64,000 nt of DNA from Shigella phage phi25-307, in sequence record MG589383. One strand, written 5' to 3'. The number at the start of each line of letters is the position of its first letter. The first letter of the stretch is position 1. Made by a program: the position numbers and the translations under genes. The notes under the pieces were generated by a model. It was not told where the DNA came from. It was given only the letters and a program-made list of their open reading frames with translations, and searched no databases. Below are positions 24,434-24,889 of the stretch, in pieces.

Positions 24434-24889
24434 TTATTTTAGATCTTCGGCCCAATCTAGTTTTAAGGGTTCTTTGTATTCACGGTCGAGAATAACCGGA
24501 ATAGCTACATCACCACTGAATGATAGTTGGCCAACGTTATATGATAACGTTATATGTGGAGTGTAGTCGTCGAAATCATGAGTAGCACCTAAAGCTCGTG
24601 CATACTGATGACGACATCTAAGATATTCGGAATCAAGAACTAAAACCAGTACAGCGCCGTCGTCAGTTTTCCATACCTCAAAGTGTCCTGATTCGGCAAT
24701 AGAATAACTACCACTAGATGTAGTATATGGTATGTTTACACGTGAATAACAAATTGTTGAATGAAGCTTTTCACGTGGTACTGGATTAGGAATTCTTAAT
24801 TTGCGCTGGAGGTCTTCCAGCGCATCAAGTGTTAATTCCGAAAATTTAGCTGCGACGTAGAGGCCTTGTGAAAAGTCCTCAAATTTCAT
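24434..24889 (-). CDS. 57B: gp57B (positional ortholog of T4 57B, the anti-CBASS nuclease Acb1)
   Basis: 151 aa; adjacent to 57A with TAATG overlap; assignment by synteny and size, catalytic residues not verified. Confidence 0.7.

Follow-up and report, generated by a model that had tools for sequence, protein, structure and literature searches.

Results

Gene content and order at the two loci

The minus-strand gene at the locus encodes a 151-aa orthologue of the T4 57B product and lies directly downstream of the 57A chaperone gene, whose stop codon overlaps the acb1 start in the sequence TAATG (Table 1). A second locus lies in the same window, by which we mean the whole stretch of DNA that was analyzed (64,000 nucleotides of Shigella phage phi25-307, record MG589383). 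There, three minus-strand genes are packed between regB and a GrcA-like gene, directly downstream of the latter and upstream of the former, in the vs.3–vs.5 neighborhood where the sequence-only reading had placed them. The middle gene is the orthologue of T4 vs.4 (acb2). At its start it shares 11 nt with the vs.5-like gene upstream, and a further TAATG, at position 9766, contains both its stop codon and the start codon of the vs.3-like gene. The mechanical vs.4 open reading frame reaches a TTG at 10200 (144 aa); the start supported by homology is the ATG given in Table 1, as annotated in the closest relative.

Table 1 Features of the acb1 and acb2 loci, in window coordinates.
Feature	Position	Strand	Evidence and remarks
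regB	9030-9488	minus	Pfam REGB_T4, E 1.2e-68
vs.3-like gene, 71 aa	9551-9766	minus	40% identity to T4 Vs.3 over 65 aa, E 9e-12; phrog_2037
acb2 (vs.4 orthologue), 88-aa helical-hairpin protein, predicted hexameric cyclic-dinucleotide sponge	9766-10032	minus	ATG at 10032
Gene at the vs.5 position, 74 aa	10022-10246	minus	Resemblance to T4 Vs.5 limited to the first 18 aa; phrog_1986
GrcA/vs.6-like autonomous glycyl-radical cofactor, 120 aa	10246-10608	minus	Pfam Gly_radical, E 1.9e-18
Internal-head-protein family gene (T4 ipI position)	24052-24360	minus	phrog_2667, E 6e-40
acb1 (gene 57B orthologue), 151 aa, predicted CBASS cyclic-oligonucleotide nuclease of the 2H-phosphoesterase family	24434-24889	minus	ATG start
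57A, tail-fiber assembly chaperone, 76 aa	24889-25119	minus	Pfam GP57, E 5.9e-23; order as in T4
dNMP kinase gene (T4 gene 1 counterpart)	25124-25858		Pfam DNMK, E 5.8e-96; upstream of 57A

The window belongs to a Mosigvirus-type T-even phage and is syntenic with T4. Based on Megablast, the closest relatives of both regions were Escherichia T-even-type phages, namely EP02SG (98.5% identity) and S143_2 (95.6–98.8%), the latter assigned to Mosigvirus (Straboviridae; Tevenvirinae). Over its first ~28 kb, the window is collinear with both S143_2 and T4, in the order tk, vs, regB, vs.3–vs.8, denV, e, tRNAs, ip, 57B, 57A and genes 1, 3 and 2. As in T4, the GrcA/vs.6-like gene is found immediately upstream of the vs.5/vs.4/vs.3 cluster. 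The tRNA genes number only two, Arg-tct and Met-cat, at 22372–22528 (minus strand), and an Rfam search of the whole window returned no other RNA genes; in the corresponding region, T4 carries eight clustered tRNAs together with segB and two small stable RNAs. A 165-aa macro-domain protein is also encoded at 7675–8172 (minus strand; Pfam Macro, E 3.4e-6). It is a homologue of T4 tk.4 ("A1pp phosphatase motif"), and phage domains that process ADP-ribose are candidates for further counter-defense roles.

In promoter and terminator scans around the acb1 and acb2 loci, sites were no more common than in shuffled sequence. From the synteny with T4 and the overlapping stop and start codons, we infer that acb1 and acb2 are co-expressed with their neighbors. 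The only convincing promoter lies downstream of acb1, in the 73-nt spacer at 24361–24433 (minus strand): an early-type GTTTACA-17-TATAGT with an upstream TG at 24419–24391. The same spacer contains a perfect 9-bp inverted repeat, ATAGGACTA/TAGTCCTAT, which overlaps the -10 element. The internal-head-protein gene that follows is presumably driven or regulated from here; its product has only the N-terminal MKTFKEF leader in common with T4 IPI. In S143_2, an additional 273-bp gene (L001 2528-2800), missing from the window, is located between the ip gene and 57B; hence, the ip locus differs between near-identical phages.

Conservation of catalytic and ligand-reading residues in Acb1

The identity of the 57B homologue, proposed in the sequence-only reading from its position next to 57A, was borne out by alignment with T4 57B, to which 128 of the 151 residues are identical (85%) over the full length of the protein. 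The match to the Pfam family Acb1 (PF23474) had an E-value of 1.8e-58 and a score of 196.8 bits (cutoff 27) and spanned profile positions 1–144 of 144. The crystallized Acb1 of Erwinia phage FBB1 (PDB 7t26/7t27) was matched with an E-value of 7.9e-59 and 64% identity, from which the window protein is expected to adopt the compact 2H phosphoesterase fold. The single-sequence AlphaFold2 model had a mean pLDDT of 38.6, too low for the model to be used.

The Acb1 family is defined by the 2H phosphoesterase fold and by an HxT/HxT tetrad, composed of H44, T46, H113 and T115 in T4 (Hobbs et al, Nature 2022, PMC9117128). The tetrad, including both catalytic histidines, is kept in the window protein as H43, T45, H112 and T114. 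Also part of this definition, in T4 numbering, are four base-stacking aromatics (Y12, W74, F107 and W147), a contact of E141 with the N6 of an adenine, and a C-terminal lid formed by residues 145–152 (PMC9117128). The corresponding aromatics in the window protein are Y11, W73, F106 and W146, and the adenine-reading glutamate is E140. All nine of these defined residues are identical to those of T4, with the numbering offset by one. The lid is also intact, without truncation, and reads LDWAEDLK versus LDWADDLK in T4.

The same protein is widespread among deposited phages. In tblastn searches, it was 100% identical to ORFs of phages LF82-2 and ECO26.1 3-1, had at least 99% identity in 117 records, and matched 1,468 records overall.

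Identification of Acb2 among the small genes next to regB

The sequence-only reading had also suggested that candidate signal sponges might be found among the small ORFs near regB. For the middle gene, the one proposed there for comparison with Acb2, this proved correct. Its product aligned with T4 Vs.4 (PDB 7uq2) with an E-value of 7.9e-30 and with the Pfam family Acb2_Tad1_hairpin (PF24729) with an E-value of 8.2e-18 and 64.8 bits (cutoff 27). It also matched phrog_717 (E 1.5e-27), the PHROG by which Jenson et al (Nature 2023) listed Vs.4 homologues (PMC10097602). The matches at both loci exceed chance expectation by many orders of magnitude. No support was found for the suggestion in the two flanking genes, which we rejected as sponge candidates. 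The vs.3-like gene encodes a shortened Vs.3 homologue, and the gene at the vs.5 position is only partly vs.5-like. Neither product has a Pfam match, the PHROGs that they match are without known function, and their resemblance is confined to the Vs.3 and Vs.5 similarities listed in Table 1.

In T4 Vs.4, cGAMP is contacted by Y8 and F82 through stacking, by H11, K23 and R79 through hydrogen bonds or salt bridges, and by S74; T12 caps a helix, and L29, F33, A66, A73 and A77 form the hexamer interface (PMC10097602). All six pocket residues have identical counterparts in the window protein (Y9, H12, K24, S74, R79 and F82), as do the helix cap (T13) and the interface residues (L30, F34, A66, A73 and A77). 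Deposited phages with at least 90% identity to this protein were found in about 134 records, and 1,231 records were matched overall.

Conservation was further analyzed in an alignment of ten phage Vs.4 proteins, comprising that of the window and those of nine other records. The nine cover Tequatrovirus, Mosigvirus, Jiaodavirus, Karamvirus, Dhakavirus and Slopekvirus and include one record assigned to Phapecoctavirus and another that lacks a genus assignment. The dinucleotide-pocket positions were invariant in all ten. What we found was neither a 57B homologue without catalytic residues nor a group of small ORFs without an Acb2 match.

Divergence of the Vs.4 hairpin tip and the predicted ligand spectrum

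The identity of the window Vs.4 to that of T4 is mosaic, with 88% for T4 residues 1–34, 26% for residues 35–69, and 95% for residues 70–88. The low central identity might be taken as a hallmark of this phage, an explanation that we rejected on the evidence of the ten-phage alignment. Throughout the T-even-type genera represented there, the tip of the hairpin (approximately residues 35–69) varies in both sequence and length, whereas residues 1–34 and 70–88, which between them hold the cGAMP pocket, are almost invariant. The variation occurs even inside Mosigvirus, where PNJ-6 has a shorter tip. The tip being hypervariable across the family, its divergence from T4 is characteristic of the family at large and does not single out this phage.

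In PaMx33 Acb2, the helix equivalent to the variable one lines a second pocket. That pocket binds cyclic trinucleotides and requires R67 and T74; in T4 Acb2, the equivalent residues are D61 and T68, and cA3 is not bound even by the D61R variant (PMC10312549). Such a pocket marks the PaMx33/JBD67-type subgroup and not Acb2 proteins in general. In the window protein, both trinucleotide determinants are missing, the equivalent residues being Q61 and Q68. The second, trinucleotide-binding pocket is thus probably non-functional, and the window Acb2 is predicted to be a dinucleotide-only sponge like that of T4, with no binding of cyclic trinucleotides. A further ligand, the Thoeris signal 3'cADPR, is bound by some Acb2 variants in which the vertex pocket is remodeled by extra terminal beta-strands (PMC12393519). 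The window Vs.4 is without such strands, and its vertex pocket is of the T4 type.

With only 26% central identity, the affinity and ligand spectrum of the window Vs.4 could nonetheless differ in detail from those of T4. A stronger version of this idea is that the divergent tip changes or broadens the ligands of Mosigvirus-type Vs.4 proteins, either through a working trinucleotide or other second pocket or through weaker binding of the Panoptes decoy. The steep drop in identity relative to the two flanks agrees with such a change, as does the location of the tip helix along the PaMx33 second pocket, where all six of the T4 residues proposed to block cA3 (6/6) differ in the window. It is also known that Acb2 homologues vary in specificity, some of them binding 3'cADPR (PMC12393519). 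However, the substitution of both PaMx33 cA3-binding determinants by glutamine argues against a working trinucleotide pocket, the switch to Thoeris signals uses added beta-strands that this protein does not have, and a tip that is hypervariable across the family, even within one genus, is more in keeping with relaxed constraint than with a specific new function. We therefore consider a changed or broadened ligand range unlikely. If the tip did alter the ligand spectrum or lower the affinity for the Panoptes decoy, the hypervariability of T-even tips would be the product of an arms race rather than of relaxed constraint, which we likewise regard as improbable.

Annotation of the two genes and integrity of their reading frames

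In public records, orthologues of Acb1 are labeled either "RNA ligase" (phrog_755; RefSeq, including T4 NP_049750.1) or "hypothetical protein". Orthologues of Vs.4 are almost all labeled "hypothetical", and the records of near-identical phages also use "putative 10.2 kDa protein". The first of these labels raises the question of whether the 57B homologue might be an RNA ligase or an RNA-repair (LigT-like) 2H phosphoesterase and not a nuclease of immune signals. The name is in wide use, both for phrog_755 and in RefSeq for T4 57B and many of its orthologues, and the 2H phosphoesterase superfamily does include both Acb1 and LigT (PMC9117128). On the other hand, T4 57B was found by activity-guided fractionation as a cGAMP-cleaving enzyme, and its deletion sensitizes T4 to CBASS (PMC9117128). 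The window protein shares 85% of its residues with that enzyme and keeps the whole set that stacks and reads the cyclic nucleotide (Y, W, F, W and E) as well as the lid, and the curated Pfam family to which it belongs is Acb1. On these grounds, the "RNA ligase" annotation was rejected; a role in RNA ligation or repair is very unlikely for this protein, and the label appears to be a name carried over from the fold superfamily.

Even harder to credit is that either or both of the genes have decayed or fallen silent and no longer serve counter-defense: natural loss of acb2 is known in phages T2 and PaMx41, and the T2 match to the window Vs.4 begins only at residue 10, but both frames in the window are full length, with the same starts and stops as in T4, no functional residue has been lost, and near-identical proteins occur in more than 100 independent isolates. 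Natural inactivation of acb2 has been documented where Panoptes selects against this gene (PMC12657218).

Discussion

A probable two-part anti-CBASS toolkit at the genomic positions of T4

Taken together, the data support the reading that this phage carries the two-part anti-CBASS toolkit of T4, Acb1 plus Acb2, at the genomic positions that the two genes occupy in T4, to which we assign a probability of roughly 0.93. What can be seen directly is the membership of both proteins in their families, the conservation of every experimentally defined residue, the synteny with T4 and the intact reading frames. Enzymatic activity, hexamer formation, ligand binding and CBASS evasion are what we infer from the T4, FBB1 and PaMx33 orthologues. 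In the literature examined, we found no direct assay of any Mosigvirus orthologue.

By analogy with these orthologues, the window Acb1 would act as a metal-independent 2H phosphoesterase in which four aromatics trap a cyclic di- or trinucleotide beneath the C-terminal lid and the glutamate reads one adenine. The HxT/HxT tetrad would then cut 3' of the adenosine in two steps, through a 2',3'-cyclic phosphate intermediate. Such an enzyme would be expected to destroy 3'3'-cGAMP, cUA, cAAA and cAAG while leaving cGG and cA4 intact. The Acb2/Vs.4 sponge family is characterized by a hexamer that takes up three cGAMP molecules at nanomolar affinity. The window Acb2, a two-helix hairpin protein, would likewise assemble into a hexamer. 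This hexamer would sequester three cyclic dinucleotides in pockets between pairs of protomers and thereby hold them away from the CBASS effectors.

Like T4, the phage would accordingly be predicted to be equipped against most CBASS systems, with Acb1 directed at adenosine-containing signals and Acb2 at cyclic dinucleotides. An intact Acb2 should also make the phage detectable by, and vulnerable to, Panoptes systems, which sense Acb2 (PMC12657218). Both genes are already known biology, being orthologues of characterized T4 genes with identical or near-identical proteins in deposited genomes, and no new mechanism is involved. For the corresponding genes of near-identical phages, the names acb1 and acb2 can confidently replace the present labels, a correction that is relevant to choosing therapeutic phages according to the defense repertoire of the host.

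Comparison with characterized Acb1 and Acb2 proteins

The Acb2 of PaMx33 (Huiting et al, 2023; Cao et al, 2024) belongs to the same Pfam family as the window Vs.4, Acb2_Tad1_hairpin, and shares the same predicted mechanism of a hexameric cyclic-dinucleotide sponge. The similarity between the two is only distant, and PaMx33 Acb2 was absent from the phmmer matches of the window protein against the PDB at E ≤ 1.

The Acb1 of T4 (57B, NP_049750.1) has 152 aa, compared with 151 aa in the window, where the protein is one residue shorter at the N-terminus. The two proteins differ by 23 substitutions, none of them at a residue of defined function, and the tetrad, aromatic cage, adenine-reading glutamate and C-terminal lid are the same in the window as in the T4 and FBB1 proteins. 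In T4, as here, acb1 directly follows gene 1 and 57A. The downstream neighbor differs, being ipI in T4 and a different internal-head-protein gene in the window.

T4 Vs.4/Acb2 (NP_049728.1, PDB 7UQ2) is ~65% identical overall to the window protein. The hairpin tip of T4 Vs.4 has two cysteines that the window tip is without, and L60 of T4, a position that emerged from a T4 mutant screen, is replaced by valine. In both phages, the protein has 88 aa and is encoded at the same position, between vs.3-like and vs.5-like genes near regB.
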